From Octopus vulgaris (taxonomy: Eukaryota), in the NCBI GenBank assembly GCA_951406725.2, contig OX597821.1:41974001-42038000 (forward strand): DNA of 64,000 nt, written 5' to 3'. The stretch's first letter is position 1. Each line of letters starts with the position of its first letter. The notes under the pieces are model-generated. The model saw only the letters and a list, made by a program, of their open reading frames with translations. It did no database searches and was not told the origin of the DNA. This document shows positions 289 through 52,486 of this stretch, piece by piece. A program made the translations under genes and the position numbers.

Positions 289-3181
289 CACACACATATA
301 ATTTATTTATACAATTTGTGTGTTTATGTATGTAAACGCCTGTGCGGGTGGAGGTGCGTACATGCGAATTTTGGTAGATTATTTATTTATAGATAAACGT
401 ATGAAGCGTGTGGGTGGCATGTGTGACAAACGAGATTAGTGCTAGGGCGGGGGAGAAGAGAGAAAGGAAATGTGTTACCTGTGCCCCGTCCAACCCCCGC
501 TTTATCAACAACAAGGAAGACCTAAAGCGGGTTGCTATGTTATCGGTGACATTCAGATACCAGTGTACATTAAGAATTAGGAATTATGTAGATTTTCAGA
601 TTAGAATGGGTAGCAGGGAATGGTAAGGCTACGAATTCCAACCTAAAGAAAACAACAAAAATACACAAAAGAAGCAGACCTGTTTAGAATTACTCAGGTT
701 TAAAAAGTTCGGGGTGAGAATAGTGAATAGTTTGCTGTGAAATTTAGGAGTGTCTCGCATACATTAAAAAGATACTTTCAAAGAGTTTATTACTAAAGTA
801 AATTCTGAAGAAAATAATTCATAATAAATTTGAAGAACAAAATATTGTTGTTAGTTGGACTATCCTAATTTTAATTCACACACACACACACACAAAATAC
901 ATTTGACAATACAAATCCGCGCTGAGCAACAAACCGCCTTTTGTTAGAAATTCTCTTTGTACTTGTCTTTCATTTCCTATTTCACTCCACCATTGTACCA
1001 AATGAGTAAGCATTTAACCAGGAAAGCAAAACAATGGCTTGTGATTTAAGCACAAGGTCATCAGTCTTGGAAGGAGAATGTGGGATTGGTCGAAGCCATC
1101 GATCCCAGTACTTGACTGGTAACCATATTTTATAGAGTCCGGAGGCAAACTTGTTCTTGGTGAAAACTGAACACAGAATGTAAAAAGATGGAATAAATAT
1201 CGCAAGGCTTTTTGTTCGACGCTCTGCCGATTCTGCCAGCTCTCTGTCTTTAATGGTTTCTGATTTAGGCGCAAAACCAACAGTTCTGAGGGAGAGGGTT
1301 AACAATTGGTTGGAACAATTGTCCCCAGTACGCGACTGGGGACAATCGAGGGATAAATGGCAAAGTTGACCGATGCAGAATTTGAACTCGGAAGGTAAAA
1401 ATTCGGATTGGGAAGGTAGAACAATAAAACCTCAATGGCAAGTTATATGTTGGGCTAAAAATAATAATAATAAATTAAGATAAATGATGTAGTCCTCACA
1501 ACGGCATTGAAAGGAAAGTTCTTTTATAGCTGATCCCCAATAATCAAACCCTAATATGCCCCACCCCTAGCCCTTTTTTTGTAGTAATCGATCTCTGGGA
1601 CGCTGTCAATTCTCTCTTTTTTTTTTTTTTTTTTTTGTATTTTTAATGTCTTCTTCAGCTCACTGTCCAGACTGTTCGTAAGTTGTTACTACAGAACCGT
1701 ACCGCTGTGTATCATTGAGAATGTAAAAGTTAAGTTTTTATTGAAGAATGCTGGCATTAATATGAAAGGAGAAATTGAAAGTTGTGACATTCATGTCTTT
1801 TATGAATCCAATTTATTATCTATCAAAGTGAAACAACAGCCGAGAATCAGAACTAAATGGTAAATTCATCTGGTAAGAGAGATGACCTCCCGATTCTGGA
1901 AGTCTATAAAATATCGTCAATAAACATGTCAACGAAGAAAGGTAATATTTCATCAGACAGAGCAAATAATCATACGAGAGATCAGAGGGCAGGAATAAAT
2001 AAAACCCAACGAATTAATTAATCGACGGTAATTAAATCAAATCAAATTTAGCGGCAGTACAGAAATTGGAAATTCTCCGATCACCTGAAGGATGGAAAAT
2101 ACTCCGAATGGCAAAATATGAGATAATCATTAATCGTAGGAAGATCGGAACACTGCCACGGCGCATTCACTGCTATCGTTACCGACGTCACCAACACCAC
2201 TGCCATCATCGCCAACATCTGACACAACTATCATCATCATCATGAATATTACTATCACGGCAAGCTGGCAGAATCGTTAGAATACCGGACAAAATGCTCA
2301 GCGGCATTTCATCCGTCTTTACATTCTAAGTTCAAACTCCACCCAGGTCGACTTTGCCTTTCATCCCCTCGGGATCGATAAAACAAATACCAGCTGAGCA
2401 CTGGGGTTCCGTGTAATCGACTTAACCTCTCCCCCAAAGTTGCTGGTGGTGGTGATGGTGGTAATGACAAGGATGATGATGATGATGATGATGTCATTGC
2501 TTAAAAAGCGATGGAAGCATCCATCAAGGCCCTGCATTCGGCCCCAACTCCCTTGTGAATCTTCCTAATTTTTCCTGCCTGCTTATAGGATCTCCTTTAA
2601 CTCTATAAAGCAAAATGGATCGGGTTTTATACGTTTTTATATCAAACCAATTACTTGTCGTGATCGCCTGATTCCGAGTGACATCAAGTCTCTCTGTTTC
2701 AGGAACAACTCAGAGACACGAATGATTAAACAATTATTTCTATTAATAATATAAACCAGTCTCATTGAAATATACTCTCCGAGGACACGTAATAACAGAA
2801 TACAGATAATTAATCAGAGGAACACAGATATTGAGAATAGTTCATAGGAGGTGGTGACTTCATGCCCTGCCCAAATGCATTCACGAAAATTGCCTACAGA
2901 CTCGAATTTCCTGGTAATCACAGCAGCGATATGGTTTCCGGTTAACATGCAGTTTAAAGTCGTAAAAAGTCTAAGGAAATTATCCTGAAAATAATGAAAG
3001 AAAATTGCAAAAAGTACAGCAGTGGTTATATGGTAAGAAGTTTGCTTCCCAACCACATAATTCTGGGTTCAGTCCCACTGCGTGGCACCTTGGGTAAGTG
3101 TCTTCTACTACAGCCTCGGACCGACCAAAACCTTTTCAATAGATTTGGTGGACGGAAACTGAAAGAAGCCCGTCGTGTATG

Positions 3182-23858: not shown

Positions 23859-24376
23859 GTATGTATATATGTATGTATGTATGTATGTATGCATGTATGT
23901 ATGTATCTATGTATGTATGTATGTATGTATATACACATACATAAATACATACATGTATGGGTGTGTGTAGGTATGTATATACACATACATACCTACACAC
24001 ACACATATACATACATACATACATACATACATACATACACACATATACATATATACATACATATATGTGTGCGTGTGTGTATATATATATATATAGATAT
24101 ATATCCTTCATTCACATCAGTCATTAGACAGCTATTATGCCGGGGCAATGCATTTAAATCGAACGAATCAACCCCAGTATTTTTTTTTTCTTTTCTTGAT
24201 ATTATTGATTACACGAACACATATATACATAACTATGTGTGTGCGTGTGCGTGCGTGTGTGTGTGTGTGTGTTCCTTTTCCGATAATTTACATCGGCAGA
24301 AAGCCTCAAAGGTGACTCAAGTGCTGAGAGTTTCGGGCTCGGCTTAAGAGTTAGTTTTATAACTTTTTGCCGATTA

Positions 24377-24410
<34 letters not shown>

Positions 24411-24611
24411 ATCAATAAGTTCGCTTTCTCTTTCTATCTCTCTCGCTCGCTCCTTCTCTCTTTCTGTCTGGTAAGAAATTTGCAGCCAAACCACATGGTT
24501 CCAGGTTTAATCCTAACGGATAGCAAGTTGCGCAAGTATCTTGTTATATAGCCAAGGGCCGACCATAACTTGTGAGTGGATTGGGTAGACGGAAACTGAA
24601 AGAAGCCTGCC

Positions 24612-24661
<50 letters not shown>

Positions 24662-24939
24662 GTATATGTATGTATGTATAAATGTATATACGTGTGTGTG
24701 TGTATTTGTGTGTCTATGCTTCCCCCTTCTACCCCCACCACCATCGATTGACAACCGATGTTGGCGTGTTTACGTTCCCGTAAGTTAGCGGTTCGGCAAA
24801 AGAGACCGATAGAATAAGTATTAGGCTCACAAAGAATAAGTCCCAGGGTCGATTTGTTCGACACTAAAGGCGGTGCTCCAGCATGGCCGCAGTCAAATGA
24901 CTGAAAGCAATAGAAGAAACAAAAGAAAATATCAACCTG

Positions 24940-25205
24940 ACCATCGCTGGTCACAATGCGCTTTCCATCGATTTTTGCTTTCGAATGATGCCACCCCACT
25001 GGCTAAGCGAACAGGCCAACCCCCCACCCCACCGGTCAGAAGGCCAGTCCATCACTGGGTTACTCATTCATAGGTGAGTGGACTCGGGAAACGTGAAATG
25101 ATGTGCTTCACTAAAGAACACAACGCGCCACCTAGTTCCGGAAATCGAGCCCAAGATCCAGCGATCGTGAACGCAATGCTCTGACCACTAGACCACGCAC
25201 CTTTA
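24940..25205 (-). mobile_element. tRNA-derived SINE family D (V-domain-like GATGGACTGG)
   Basis: A box TGGTCTAGTGG, B-box-like GCTCGATTTCC; homologous to the 11483 copy. Confidence 0.6.
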
Positions 25206-25359
25206 CACACACACATCATCATCAGTAATTCATATATCCGAACGAGAAGCATACTCTAAAGCAACAGAGAAGTAATATATTTGTTTCAGGAAGTTAAATG
25301 TTATGTCGGTCACAGAGTGCAAAAGAAACATTAGCGGTAGTAGCACATCGACTACACAG

Positions 25360-25700
25360 ACACGAAAATATGTCGGTCAACCGTGCACCCGTTTAACCAA
25401 CGTCTGAACAGCCACAAATCCTCTTTTAGAATTCAGGAAAGCAGCAACATCACGTCCCTACCCAGCCACGCATGTCGCTTAAAAGAGGAAGGAACCTATA
25501 CATGATTAATTGGAAGCTCATTATACAACCGGGGGCTCATACAAATGAGAGCAAACGATGTGAGCTTTGCTTGGCAGAGAGAGCAAGAATCTGGAAAAAA
25601 AAACTCGTTCAACCCGGAGACCTTTGCTAAGCTCCAAGAAAGAAGGTTTTAGTCAGTGCCCTCATCTAAAACGTTTTAAACTACAAACTTGGAATTTTCC
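25360..25700 (+). pseudogene. Penelope-like element GIY-YIG endonuclease C-terminal remnant
   Basis: Frameshifted translation RKYVGQ / FNQRLNSHKSSFR..ITSLPSHACRLKEEG / INWKLII..NESKRCELCLAERARI / LLSSKKEGFSQCPH matches the PLE pattern YIG..F..R...H.SSF...CxLC...L....E....C.H. Confidence 0.8.
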
Positions 25701-25982
25701 ATTCGTTGAAAAGGCCCGCTGTAGCTCCTTTGAATATCAGCACGGCTGGAGCCAGGGATAACTCCGTCCTTCTTGCAGCACCCCTGCACAGATAATCCTC
25801 CAGGTGTGGAGAGCTTATGCGCCTTCAGTCAATTGAGCGTATACTGCTAAGCGCTTTATTGGTGCGAAACCAATAGTCATTCTATGACCGGCCGTAACAT
25901 TGAACTTACACACACACACATCCTGTTTACGTCCCGTTTTTACGTCCTGTTTGTGTCACATTTTGTTCTTTCCTTGTTTTTA

Positions 25983-26100
25983 CCCATCTGCGAAGTAATT
26001 TCCATTAATTTCTTCGCAGGAAGGGCTAGTTCGACGAGTCGTGTTCTGTCCTCACCTTCGAAACACGCTGGAGTTGAACTAGAGACAGCTGATGAAGGGG
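25983..26100 (+). ncRNA. Non-circularly permuted hammerhead ribozyme (site-GAAA-CUGA order) in the PLE 3' pLTR
   Basis: Helix III CGUGU/ACACG, site U26045, helix I CUGUC/GACAG, helix II GAAGG/CCUUC, GAAA at 26060-26063, CUGAUGA at 26089-26095, outer 10-bp helix. Confidence 0.7.
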
Positions 26101-26319
26101 ATTTTTCCTTGTGTAGTTTGTCTAGTACTCTGTTTTTTTTTCTTTGTAAAAAAAAGGTTCGTTCCATGCTTATTTTTACGTTTCCGTTCTCGTTGAGTTC
26201 TGCGTCTATTTGTGGTGTCCTGTACTCACGTATATATATTTATATATGCATGTACATATACATGTAGATGTAGGTACGTACATATATGTATGTATGTATG
26301 TATGCATATATTTATTTTT

Positions 26320-26380
<61 letters not shown>

Positions 26381-26439
26381 CAAAACTGAGCTGCTGTCTT
26401 TACTGAAAGAAGATCCGAGATAATATAAGCTAATTCATC

Positions 26440-27650
26440 ACGCTTTTGTCCCTTCATTGTGATGTTGTCGCTGCATTTATAGCCGTTTCTGTTGATCAGA
26501 ATTTAGCTCTTTTCTGAAATACCTTCCGTTCGGTAGACTCCTGACGCTCTTCTTAGTCCGGTGGTGAATCCCTGCCGTTCGCAGTTCTGCTTCGTTACTT
26601 CCCATTAAATCGATATTGTCAGCAAAACGTAGGTTCCACAGGGGCCCTCCTCCGATAGAAATGGTTGGGTGGAAGTGTTTCCTGCGTGGTATTTTCCAGG
26701 AAAATATTGAAAAGTACAAGAGAGACGATGCAATTTTTTCCGATCCCAACTGTTATCCTGAAGACTCTTCCTACAATGATATTCAGGGTGTAGTCCAGTT
26801 GGAATTTTTATGCAGGATACATAAATTTCTATCAGACTTATAAATGGGAGGGCATTTGTAATGTGCTGGCGACGTTGGTGGACAGGAAGAAACTAAAATA
26901 AAGAAATTGAGAGATAGTCGCTTCTTTAAATACCCGAAGTAGCGACAAACAAATTTTTATTTTGCTTCAACCAACCAGATAAGGCAGCTGTCAAATTTTA
27001 AATTTCTCGTCATTTTCCACAGCCCTTCATTCCAAACATGGTGAAGGATTTTCTTCAAGTCCATAAAGCCGTTGTATTGATCAACTTCTACAAAATTTTC
27101 ATTAACTTCAATTCCATTGACGTCAAAGAGATTTTTCAATTACCATTATGCTCTGATATCCTGCGTTATGGCAGGGATGGAGTGAATCCTTCCCGTTTTC
27201 CTGCGAAAATCTTTTCTGCCTCCGACTGAAACCGTTTTACATTAACTCTTAGCAGTAATCTACTGGATCCACTAACCAAACTGATGGGTCAATAATTCTA
27301 GGCGAGCCATAAGTTACTTTCATTAAAACATGCATTCCTAGGGATTGTGGCCATTCTTTTGGCCACTGATGAATTCAAAACCATATTTCAGAAGCCCAGC
27401 AGGGTTGTCCATTCCTGATTATTTCCTTTCTTTGAGCATGTACACCGATTCTTCAACTCTTTCCTGAGCTATTGGCGTATTACAAAGTTCTTAATCTTTA
27501 TTGGTGGTTGTTCCATGTTTTTGTAGTTACATAGTTCCTTGCAATACCCAGACCGTCTTTTGATAATAAGCAATTCTATCTAAGAGGAGAAATCCTTTTA
27601 TCTTGTTTTTAATGACTGTTGCAACTTCCGTTTTGCCATTTTTTCTCGAA
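26440..27650 (-). pseudogene. Decayed RTE-like LINE RT, interrupted by a ~120-bp repeat at about 26865-26975
   Basis: QSEAEKIFAG..EGF, FMDLKKILHHVWNEGLW and NLRFADNIDLMG (FADD-like) motifs. Confidence 0.7.
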
Positions 27651-27918
27651 CATGTGAATAATGGGTACCATCGGGGCGCTGGTGCATCCCTCTCTCCTCC
27701 AAGATGTTCCGCTGGAGGAATGGCGTGGGTGTAGGGACCGAAGTGTGGTCCATGTCTGCTTGCAACTACAGACAGGAAGCTAAAACAATTAGCGAAAAAG
27801 CGTGTAACATGTTACCAAGTCCATACTCACACGTGTGACGGCTGGCTCTACTAACACATGCACGTGTGTGTGTGTATTCGTATGTGTTTGTGTGAATGTA
27901 TGTATGTGTGTGTGTATG

Positions 27919-27974
<56 letters not shown>

Positions 27975-27985
27975 CATATATATAT

Positions 27986-28029
<44 letters not shown>

Positions 28030-34510: not shown

Positions 34511-35774
34511 TATAATTAAATGGCCACCGTTATCCTGCTGTTGATTCGCTAATTTTTCAGTATCATCTTCCATATTTGGTAAACAAACTCTCAAATGTTC
34601 TCTTTTTACTTTTCAACATTTCAGTGCTTAGTTTTCAACTCAATATTGATTCCTTTCTTGACAAAATATGCAGAGAAAGAAAAGTAATCGCTTCTTTGAT
34701 TAATTAATTGTTCGACCAATCTATCATTCAGTTAAGTTAGTCAAAATCCTTCAACACCCCAAGCCTGCTTAAACAGAAAATTTGCTTTGAATCTTTGGAC
34801 AGAAGACTTCAAATTCATTCTTAGAACTGTACATGGAGCATCAAAATAATTTTCTAAGTCTATTAATTCTTCGAGTAAGTATTTGAATGAGCAAGATAAC
34901 GTCAGAATGGAAAGGATTTGTACCAAAGAGTCGAGTGTTTTCATTTCATGAAAGTCTTTGACTGTGATCTTTTGTGGGATTTTTCAGTACCAGATGGGAA
35001 CAATAACATTCCAGGCCTGTAAGGTAAATGGTAAATCATTTTATTTTAATTTATTTTTGATTTGCATTCCTGAGGCAGCGAGCTGGAAATCGTTAGATGC
35101 TTAGAGGCATTTCTTCCGGCTCTTTACAGCCTGAATTCAAATTAGACCGGGGTCAACTTTTCCTTTCATCCCTCCAGGGGTTGATAAAACAAAGTACCAG
35201 TCATGTACTGGGTTAAATCTAATCAATTCACACCCACCCCCACCAGCCCTCCAAATTACTGATCTTCAGCCAAAACTTGAAACTTTTATTTCCATTCTTA
35301 GATCATAAGTGCAGAATCAAAATCTGCTTTGGGGTTGCAAACCCAAAATGTTCGAAGCGTTTCCATTGCCGCATCACCATCGAAAAAATTAAAGAGCGTG
35401 CCTGCATCCCTTGTACTCGAGCACCCCCTGTTTGGAAACTGTAGGTGCAGTAAGGCCGAATGTAAAAAGTTCGTTTCGCAAACCTGAGGTCTTGGGTTCA
35501 ACTCGGTTGTATGACATCTTGGGTCAAATATCAGTTTTCTGTAACCCTTGACCAACTCATAACTTGTGAGTGAAACTGGATTGACAGTTACAGATGGGTG
35601 GAGAGTACCCGCAATTTAAAAGACCTCCTGGTCACACGCTGTATCATACTGACTCTGCCGGGCAACTACATTAAGGGTACACTGTAAGTAGTGTTTATGG
35701 TACCCTAGGGTACTGGCGTAATGGTTGAGAGGGGGTATGACTACTACTGTACTTGTAAACAAGTGTGTTGTTGC

Positions 35775-36478
35775 AAATAATAATGGTTTCCAATTTTGAC
35801 ACAAGGCCAGCAATTTTGGTGGAAGGGAAAAGTCGATTACAACGAACCCAGTGCTTAGTTGCTACTTATTTTATCGACCCCGAAAGGGAGGAAAGGCAAA
35901 GTTAACCTCAGCGGAATTTGAACTCAGAATGTGAAGACGGACTAAACGCCGCTAAGCATTTTAATCGGCGTGCTAGCGATTTTACCAGCTCACCGCATTG
36001 TAAATAATAATAATCCTTTCTACTATAGGCACAAGGCCTGAAATTTGAGAGGAGGGGACTAGTTGATTACATCGACCCCAGTACACAACTGATACTTAAT
36101 TTATCGACCCCGAAAGGACGAAAGGCAAAGTCGACCTCGACAGAATTTGAACTCAGAACCTATCGACGTGCAAAATGTTTAGCAGCATTTCGCCCGTCGT
36201 CCTAACGATTCTGCCAACTCGCCGCCTTATTGCAAATAATAATAATAATAATAATAATAATAGTCCTTTCTACTGGAGGCACAAGGCCGCAAATTTGTAG
36301 GGTGGGGACTAGTCAATTGTATCGACCCCAGTGTTTCAATGGTACTTACTTTATCGACCCCAAAAGGATGAAAAGCAAAGTCGACCTCGGCGGAACTTGA
36401 ACTCAGAACGTAACGGCAGACGAAGTACCGCAAAGCATTTCGCCCGCCATGCTAACGTTTCTGCCTGCTCGCCGCCTC

Positions 36479-36517
<39 letters not shown>

Positions 36518-36670
36518 CCTTTCTACTATAGGCACAAGGCCTGAAATTTGGGGGACGGGGGTAGTCGATTACATCAACTCCAATGCGTAACTGGTACTTA
36601 ATTCGTCGATCCCGAAAGGATGAAAGGTAAAGTCGACCTCGGTGCAATTTGAACTCGGAACATAGCGACG
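35775..36670 (-). mobile_element. Four head-to-tail SINE B-subfamily copies with (AAT)n junctions
   Basis: Repeated CACAAGGCC...ATCGACCCC...GAACTCAGAA units separated by (AAT)n. Confidence 0.85.
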
Positions 36671-37296
36671 AGCGGAAAGGTTGTGTTGCTGTTGTTGGTG
36701 GTGCTGTTGCTGTTGTTGTTGTTGTTGCTGTTGTTGTTGTTGAGCCCATAGTCAACCTGATCAAACAGACCTATGATCAGAGGCACTCCAGCTGGGGCAA
36801 ATCAAACATTTTTCTTTCGACACATAGGGTATTCTAGAAGATTCCACAATCCAGAATCCATGGGTCTCTTCCGTTTTCTAAAGCAATAAGAATTTGCTTT
36901 GAGGGAGATTTAGCAAAAGTAGGGTTCTGCTGGTGGGTTTAACGGTGTGTATGTATGTGCATGTATATATATGTATGCATGCGCATCTGTGTGTGTGTAT
37001 GAGTGCACGTATGTTGTGCATGTGAGTGCATGTGTATGCGTGTGCATGCGCGCATGTGATCGTGTGCGTGCATATGTACTTGTGAGTGCATGTGTATGAG
37101 TTTTGCACTCTGTGGGATGTTGTTTCTGTTTGTGTATTGGTTTGTCTGTATGTTTGTTTATTATATGTGTTTGTGTTGAGTGTTGAGTGTGTAGTCGGTT
37201 GTGCGCGTTCCGTTGTGCTGCGTGTCATGTGATGGACGTGTTGTGATGTGTGTGTTGTATTACGCGATGAGTTGTGTGTTGTGTTGTACTCCGTGT

Positions 37297-40786: not shown

Positions 40787-40909
40787 TTTCTTTCTTCAGT
40801 CGAGTTCCAGATTATCGTTACAATTTCGGCTGATTATACTCGAGATTGCTCCAATCTGGCCAGCCCCAAGGAAAAATTAAGCTAAGAGCACTAGATTCCT
40901 TGGAAGAAA
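40787..40909 (-). ncRNA. Non-circularly permuted hammerhead ribozyme (site-GAAA-CUGA order), second family
   Basis: Minus strand: helix III GCAAU/AUUGU, AUC site (40844), helix I UCGAGU/ACUCGA, helix II GGCUG/CAGCC, GAAA, CUGAAGA, outer helix CCAGAUU/AAUCUGG. Confidence 0.75.
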
Positions 40910-42961: not shown

Positions 42962-43480
42962 TATAAGGATAAAAAGGAACACACGAGTTGATATATATGG
43001 AAAAAAAAGTCAAGGTAGAAAATGTTAAAATAATTTTACAAAAAACATTTCAGTACCGGTTCCAGTCATTGAGACTTTTTCAACTGTAACAATTAAACAA
43101 TTAAATTTAGAAAAATTAAAAGAAAAGTTTTTTTAAAAGAATATTTGTATAGTGTTCAAATACAAGTGGCATTTTCCTTTGTTTCTGCCTGTCTCTGTCT
43201 CTCTTGTTTACTCTTGTGGGTTCGAGGTCCTTGTGAATTCTTGGTACAAGGACCTCGAACCCACAAGAGTAAACAAGAGAGACAGAGACAGGCAGAAACA
43301 AAGGAAAATACCACTTGTATTTGAACACTATACAAATATTCTTTTAAAAAAAAATTTCTTTTAATTTTTCTAAATTTAATTGTTTAATTGTTACAGTTGA
43401 AAAAGTCTCAATGACTGGAAGCGGTACTGAAATGTTTTTTGTAAAATTATTTTAACATTTTCTACCTTGACTTTTTTCCC
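42962..43480 (-). mobile_element. Young PLE-like fold-back element in a microsatellite
   Basis: ~235-bp near-perfect arms (about 43000-43234 / 43246-43480), 11-nt loop, short extension on the left, flanked by (TG)n/(TA)n. Confidence 0.8.
43051..43086 (-). ncRNA. Minimal hammerhead variant with U3-A8 core
   Basis: CAG-UUGAAAA-AGUC-UCAAU-GACU-GGAA-CCGG-UA-CUG; mirror copy at 43394-43429 (+). Confidence 0.55.
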
Positions 43481-51527: not shown

Positions 51528-52486
51528 GGCAGAAACGTTAGCACGCCGGGCGAAATGCTTTGTGGTATTCCGTCCGCCGTTACGTTCTAAGTTCAAATTC
51601 CGCCGAGGTCGACTTTGTGTTTCATCCTTTCGGGGTCGATAAATTAAGTACTAGTTACGCACTGGGGTCGATGTAATCGACTTAATCCGTTTGTCTGTCC
51701 TTGTTTGTCCCCTCTGTGTTTAGCCCCTTGTGGGTAGTAAAGAAATAGGTATTTTGTCTGTCTTTACGTTCAGAGTTCAAATTCCGCCGAGGTCGACTTT
51801 GCGTTTCATCCTTTCGGGGTCGATTAAATAAGTACCAGTTACGCACTGGGGTCGATGTAATCGACTTAATCCGTTTGTCTGTCCTTGTTTGTCCTCTCTG
51901 TGTTTAGCCCCTTTTGGGTAGTAAAGAAATATGTATTTTTTCTGTCTTTACGTTCTGAGTTCAAATTCCGCCGAGGTCGACTTTGCCTTTCATTCTTTCG
52001 GGGTCGATAAATTAAGTACTAGTTACGCACTGGGGTCGATGTAATCGACTTAATCCGTTTGTCTGTCCTTGTTTGTCCCCTCTGTGTTTAGCCCCTTGTG
52101 GGTAGTAAAGAAATAGGTATTTTGTCTGTCTTTACGTTCAGAGTTCAAATTCCGCCGAGGTCGACTTTGCGTTTCATCCTTTCGGGGTCGATTAAATAAG
52201 TACCAGTTACGCACTGGGGTCGATGTAATCGACTTAATCCGTTTGTCTGTCCTTGTTTGTCCTCTCTGTGTTTAGCCCCTTTTGGGTAGTAAAGAAATAT
52301 GTATTTTTTCTGTCTTTACGTTCTGAGTTCAAATTCCGCCGAGGTCGACTTTGCCTTTCATTCTTTCGGGGTCGATAAATTAAGTACTAGTTACGCACTG
52401 GGGTCGATGTAATCGACTTAATCCGTTTGTCTGTCCTTGTTTGTCCCCTCTGTGTTTAGCCCCTTGTGGGTAGTAAAGAAATAGGT
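51528..52486 (+). repeat. Tandem array of five 184-bp SINE B units
   Basis: Units start at 51580, 51764, 51948, 52132 and 52316; units 2 and 4 match, as do 3 and 5. Confidence 0.9.

Follow-up and report, generated by a model that had tools for sequence, protein, structure and literature searches.

The motif at 25983..26100 of the 64,000-nt stretch of Octopus vulgaris DNA analysed here (the window) is very probably a self-cleaving hammerhead ribozyme of S-G-C block order that is opened between A9 and G10.1, a form common in the 3′ UTRs of Naiad elements and found also in non-coding repeats. The sequence, pairing and covariation of the layout are established, and so is a link to Naiad genes in family C of this genome and in metagenome loci. 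Cleavage after U26045 is predicted because the hammerhead core is present and because the type SGC and type CSG ribozymes that were assayed in vitro do cleave, at 0.004–0.19 per minute according to the available text of Eckert et al. (2023, PMC10085705). We would expect self-cleavage of intact family copies with considerable confidence, and of the window copy itself with somewhat better than even chance.

A preliminary description of this DNA had proposed a hammerhead core in an order that is not that of types I, II or III. Every strand it named is in place on the + strand (Table 1) and the core (C3–A9, G12–A15.1, U16.1 at 26044 and H17) is complete, in the order cut site, GAAA, CUGANGA; the claim is thereby confirmed, the block order being S, G, C and not the circular order C, G, S that, together with a match in Rfam, marks the three classical types. 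The comparison with Rfam that the description had suggested gave no hammerhead match at E <= 5 in window 24000–28000, and none was obtained in five motif-bearing loci among the 17 scanned. Helix III pairs 26040–44 with 26063–67, helix I pairs 26046–51 with 26083–88, the triplet at the cut site is GUU and the predicted cut falls between 26045 and 26046. The block order, the short linker between helices I and II and the ‘I’ helix are those of type SGC. Block C is intact in that type, the helix II strand following within 1–2 nt of A9, whereas here G10.1 (26020) lies 75 bases upstream of A9 (26095).

Table 1. Coordinates of the ribozyme motif, of its carrier repeat and of a second copy in the window
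Feature	Position	Strand	Remarks
Family A copy, 5′-truncated	25935..26323	+	non-coding repeat of ~780–840 nt with the ribozyme motif; homology with 29 other loci
Helix a, 5′ strand	25983..25987	+	pairs with the bases directly after A9 (26096–100)
Hairpin b	25988..26019	+	abuts helix a and helix II, spacer 0
Helix II, detached 5′ strand	26020..26024	+	pairs with 26055–59; G26020 is G10.1
‘I’ helix, 5′ strand	26026..26035	+	pairs with 26073–82; connects helices I and II at their outer ends
Block S	26040..26051	+	helix III strand 26040–44, U17 at 26045, helix I strand 26046–51
Linker, helix I to helix II	26052..26054	+	length fits the ‘typically three nucleotides’ of type SGC
Block G	26055..26067	+	helix II 3′ strand 26055–59 (C11.1 at 26059), G12–A15.1 26060–63, helix III strand 26064–67
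‘I’ helix, 3′ strand	26073..26082	+	10-pair helix with 26026–35
Helix I partner strand and core	26083..26095	+	partner strand 26083–88; C3–A9 (CUGAUGA) 26089–95
Helix a, 3′ strand	26096..26100	+	begins directly after A9
(TA)n run	26324..26377	.	3′ end of the copy, likely insertion target; the same in the other loci listed
Family F copy	40787..40909	-	same layout, unrelated in sequence; predicted cut after 40844, triplet AUC

Helix a had been described as pairing at four of its five positions, which is indeed what is seen. The mismatch is private to the window copy, a C-to-A change at 25986, where 26 of the 27 ungapped other family A copies have C and form five pairs of five. A second private change, G to A, affects helix I at 26083, and G stands there in 26/27 copies. 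Helix a is therefore complete in the family, with five pairs, and helix I has six. The window copy carries two private helix-weakening changes that leave both helices weaker than the family's, which, like its GUU triplet, counts against it. Single changes at core-adjacent positions number only two among the 27 copies, but these are the best-scoring ones, so that conservation is biased upward and says little on selection. A 136-nt stretch containing the motif folds more stably than its shuffles (z −2.68); the lowest-energy fold is without helices I and II, which are pseudoknots and as such lie outside the model of the folding program.

The same layout recurs throughout this genome. Two S-G-C core patterns gave 733 and 1,377 exact matches, 2,110 together, against 0 in the reversed control; since helix I is fixed at its first three pairs in both patterns, the two counts are lower bounds. 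The motif descriptor had 0 matches in 631,826 shuffled bases. The core matches fall into several families, whose consensus sequences keep the layout. Within the clan of the window copy, helix a and hairpin b covary: at the junction, helix a has G-C in place of U-A in 6 of 28 motifs, and one pair of hairpin b has gone from G-C to A-U. Two of these 28 motifs are truncated, and a U is inserted after A9 in one subfamily (L190, L202; also L066); an extra U or a junction mismatch occurs in some subfamilies (L066, L190, L202, L110, L182). Family C has only three straight pairs in helix a. Family F has 2,871 candidates in the genome, of which 40 were scored, and 14 of 20 loci parse into the split layout; no Naiad gene was found within 1.5 kb of the family F copies fetched.

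The carrier of the motif in the window belongs to family A, of which the best 40 scored of 1,621 genome candidates are 96–100% identical. Homology to the 29 other loci begins at 25935–25960 and extends to about 26320; further upstream those loci continue into a common non-coding unit and not into the sequence of the window. Terminal direct repeats 773–843 nt apart, a distance equal to the unit length, are present in 6/30 loci and an inverted 5′ copy of the unit in 2/30, tandem copies about 800–900 nt apart exist in the genome, and the flanks, among those listed, are mostly (TA)n. Partial tandems, inverted 5′ copies and (TA)n flanks make up the insertion pattern described for Penelope-like elements, and (TA)n is a listed target preference of Naiads, in the available text of Craig et al. 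(PMC8557442); family A displays all of these features, which are not exclusive to Naiads. An upstream ORF with N-terminal GIY-YIG, CxC, DKA and C-terminal RT is present neither at the window copy nor in family A, no Naiad protein match was obtained within 1.5–4 kb of any family A, B or F copy fetched, and the same flanks (1.5–4 kb) of the family A copies yielded no autonomous partner element. In L011 and L030, the first base of the upstream partial copy lies 2 and 8 nt beyond the predicted cut site on its 3′ side, at the equivalents of window positions 26048 and 26054. Elsewhere in the window, a long inverted repeat with arms of about 210 nt stands between (TA)n runs at 43000–43430 and resembles the inverted 5′ structure of another mobile element, and tandem arrays of 184–250-nt units of a common short repeat occupy 35771–36673 and 51580–52486.

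The distribution of the 5′ junctions with (TA)n, from reverse-strand counts taken as one per locus, shows a step at the cut: 51 fall in the 10 nt just 3′ of it and 19 in the 21 nt just 5′ (same anchor), and farther out, with different anchors, 115 fall in 31 nt further 3′ and 59 in 31 nt further 5′. This step is a weak hint of templates ending at the cut, because most junctions lie 6–8 nt past the predicted position, at TA microhomology, and because the anchors differ.

The preliminary description had further placed the motif in a Penelope-like 3′ end, behind a GIY-YIG remnant of such an element and ahead of the terminal (TA)n. Both landmarks are present, the (TA)n ending at 26377, but the remnant is foreign to the element that carries the motif; the Penelope-like connection itself is supported through the Naiad clade. 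What lies upstream (window 25345–25900, +) is a decayed piece of an older Penelope-like family, its C-terminal GIY-YIG end, and other copies of that family are 70–79% identical; Pfam gave no name to the GIY-YIG fragment tested. That the motif is the 3′ end of the remnant's own element is rejected, since its upstream DNA is shared by none of the 29 other family A loci and the motif is absent from all 14 other loci of the remnant's family. Their adjacency is a nested insertion, the remnant being a separate older element. At one place in 7/14 loci of the remnant's family, CUGANGA is followed by GAAA, and by eye this looks like a type I hammerhead of the usual kind; the window copy of the remnant has lost this CUGANGA (about 25835–25890).

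The link to Naiads comes from other carriers of the motif. That of family C matches the 3′ ends of the Naiad_Obim and Naiad_Ovul consensus sequences (PMC8557442, available part) and stands 0.9–1.4 kb behind Naiad RT ends in 6/25 loci of this genome. The RT core ahead of the family C motif gave an RVT_1 match, Pfam gave no name to the RT end tested, and the best relative of this RT has an N-terminal GIY-YIG (residues 111–162), CxC and DKA. Among the published consensus ends available from the same source, the split layout can be read by eye in three from Acropora and in two unnamed entries, and less well in Naiad_Bfor. Naiad-2_Nbra, Naiad-3_Nbra and two unnamed entries show, likewise by eye, an intact CSG form. 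This reading covered 55/62 places of one core word and 14/23 and 14/43 of two others and is not a census.

An alignment of 35 Naiad-type proteins retrieved 471 relatives in metagenome contigs, and the descriptor, allowing all block orders, was run on the 3′ UTRs of the best 80. The split form was found in 16 of these, some of them near-duplicates, as compared with 0/80 reverse strands and 1/240 shuffles, and an intact CSG form in one (L138, about 1,120 nt after the RT match). Four further loci, among the 23 listed, fit the split layout by eye with one junction or hairpin mismatch each. Of the 21 motif-bearing loci, 13 have the GIY-YIG pattern upstream and 20 have DKA/DKS. On a quick RT tree rooted at the midpoint, loci with the split form lie to either side of the root. 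The sequence evidence thus supports Naiad-clade elements, with their N-terminal endonuclease, as the Penelope-like link of the motif. Since Naiads are reported to be without canonical hammerheads (Craig et al., PMC8557442, available text), the split form is probably their missing ribozyme. As to other structures in these UTRs, SECIS-like matches below threshold (L155:3367-3428, L158:2146-2208) agree with the reported selenoprotein Naiads of clams, and the UTRs of L128 and L132 have in common a structured stretch of about 200 nt, without hammerhead core or Rfam match, that is perhaps another ribozyme variant.

The fold might be kept for a non-catalytic function, as a binding site for a protein of the element or for RNA stability, with poor or no cutting. 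Such a reading would accommodate the 63 of 80 Naiad-type 3′ UTRs without a descriptor match (14 of the 63 are shorter than 250 nt) as well as the many copies that span the cut site intact, which imply that uncut or re-ligated RNA is copied. We nevertheless regard it as improbable, given that the catalytic bases are fixed while the helices vary freely and that position 17 is never G in the 22 motifs compared below, although the descriptor also barred G. Moreover, a short twister-like motif often takes this place in loci without the hammerhead, an indication that what is needed is cleavage and not one particular fold. This motif was recognized in 13 hammerhead-free 3′ UTRs (L123 at 3076–3135, L124, L125, L136, L155, L156, L158-L162, L171, L188) and in one locus with a hammerhead, as compared with 2/80 in the control. 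The L123 motif scores 28.7 bits against Twister-P5 (curated threshold 37.6); L155-L162 have an unusual-looking P1 region, the four scanned gave no Rfam match, and the motif is possibly a twister variant. On the quick tree, L123-125 group as sisters of a locus with the split hammerhead, which suggests that one ribozyme was swapped for the other.

The detachment of the 5′ strand of helix II and the pairing of the bases after A9 with the 5′ end, both already claimed in the preliminary description, are borne out by covariation across families, which was sought, as that description had advised, among genomic copies and also in metagenome loci. In 22 motifs, the first four pairs form with the motif's own partner strand in 21 cases for helix II, 16 for helix a, 18 for hairpin b and 22 each for helices III and I, counts that are inflated, since 14 motifs were chosen by a descriptor requiring these helices and 8 were parsed by hand. 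With partners swapped among motifs, the corresponding frequencies are 8% (II), 7% (a), 11% (b), 19% (III) and 23% (I). U16.1-A15.1 is found in 22/22. The ‘I’ helix, which the descriptor did not require, has a mean duplex energy of −14.3 kcal/mol with its own strands versus −5.8 kcal/mol with non-cognate ones. In a sequence-only alignment of six related loci, five of six helix II pairs change on both sides, a score reached by 0/500 shuffles; helix a is invariant in that alignment (0/4 pairs covary), and a blind alignment of the 22 divergent motifs failed to line up the helices. Helices I, II and III thus surround the core with covariation, as in a hammerhead.

Alternatively, the motif could be an ordinary type-SGC ribozyme in which the sequence following A9 supplies helix II (four pairs with 26056–59, beyond an extra A) and the upstream strands play no part. 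A contiguous helix II of four pairs, two of them G-U, is possible in the clan of the window copy, and one of up to six in one subfamily; in addition, some hammerheads tolerate small insertions in the core, as stated in the available text of PMC3088659. Elsewhere the contiguous helix vanishes, with 0–1 pair in 16/16 strict metagenome motifs, 0 in 14/14 parsed family F loci and 2 in family C, while the upstream strand provides 5–6 pairs with G10.1-C11.1 in 21/22 motifs and a duplex energy of −4.6 kcal/mol as against −2.8 for the contiguous one, all of which makes this explanation very unlikely. Equally unlikely is a ribozyme assembled for the most part across tandem units or in dimers, to which a neighbouring unit contributes hairpin b, helix a and the detached strand of helix II, so that only multimers are cut: such tandems exist and dimeric cleavage is known for some Penelope hammerheads, but the strands of the 22 motifs abut with 0-nt spacers within about 95–135 nt and need no partner, and autonomous Naiad loci have one motif per UTR.

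In the split hammerhead that we favour, helices I, II and III would form the usual core, the 10-pair helix would tie the outer ends of I and II, and a four-arm junction of core, helix II, hairpin b and helix a would replace the A9–G10.1 bond and set A9 on G10.1 in the presumed three-dimensional structure. The RNA would be cut after U26045, and transcripts that are tandem or read through would thereby be shortened to single units. The core and helix a would be transcribed last, so that the ribozyme could form only once the whole motif has been made. In full Naiads, it would set the ends of the RNA where transcripts are tandem or run through; from family A transcripts, it would free units of ~800 nt, which may circularise, as proposed for ribozyme-released retrozyme units in the available text of bioRxiv 10.64898/2026.07.22.740005. 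A Naiad reverse transcriptase may copy such units into (TA)n, and would presumably be the enzyme that moves family A. Copies longer than one unit fit circles but equally read-through of tandems. The contigs of four sequencing runs, which bear on neither expression nor cleavage, contained neither ends nor joints of the RNA.

If this reading is correct, no non-circularly permuted hammerhead would have been linked to animal genomes before the motif, as far as our literature search reached, and the motif would explain why Naiads seemed ribozyme-free. That search, with most subscription journals outside its scope, returned no paper tying Naiads or animal genomes to SGC or CSG hammerheads and none describing a break at A9–G10.1. 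The split layout also fits the ‘half cores’ that would not fit in Craig et al. (PMC8557442), whose available text gives eight Naiad cases with the second half on either side at 35–50 nt. Naiads without the split form often carry CSG hammerheads or twister-like ribozymes, and a 3′ ribozyme may then be general to the clade. We consider it fairly likely that an undescribed hammerhead topology, with a four-way junction in place of the A9–G10.1 bond, is an ancestral Naiad ribozyme across corals, octopuses and other invertebrates, and that it drives a hidden class of retrozymes with thousands of copies per genome. Searches of the Rfam kind would then be missing whole ribozyme families; this genome by itself has >2,000 core matches. 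In RNA engineering, the A9–G10.1 break with its swappable hairpin would provide a new place at which to attach a sensor domain.

The closest known system is the type-SGC hammerhead (HRIMA-1 and variants, PMC10085705), known from metatranscriptomes only according to the available text of Eckert et al. and described there as blocks S, G and C, where about three bases link helix I to helix II and a further helix connects their outer ends. The window motif shares with it the order S, G, C, the short linker, the outer-end helix, all core bases and at least two pseudoknots. That part of what the preliminary description took for an unusual permutation has accordingly been published; what is new is the break between A9 and G10.1. 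Block C of type SGC, CUGANGA with the adjacent helix II strand, was assumed to be unbreakable, whereas the window motif splits it at A9/G10.1 and closes the gap with helix a and hairpin b. This break violates an assumption used to enumerate all hammerhead permutations, and the three-block rule would be incomplete. To judge by the text of Eckert et al., the split form is unlikely to be among their 583 sequences. Type CSG, of which the available text gives only two examples, both from metagenome DNA, has the same cyclic order but opens the cycle between blocks, whereas the window motif opens it inside block C.

Among hammerheads of Penelope-like elements, the type I ribozymes in the pLTRs of Penelope/Poseidon, Neptune, Nematis and Hydra resemble the window motif in their core, their position near the 3′ end of the element and their likely role in transcript trimming. 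They differ in having the order C, G, S without pseudoknots and in being found by standard descriptors, which the window motif is not. Family A, for its part, resembles the non-LTR retrozymes, non-autonomous Penelope derivatives of animals that are likewise non-coding units of several hundred bases, with one ribozyme each, in monomers and tandems (bioRxiv 10.64898/2026.07.22.740005, available text). Those are defined by type I hammerheads, whereas family A has the split SGC form and would escape that pipeline; the likeness is drawn here at the level of DNA.
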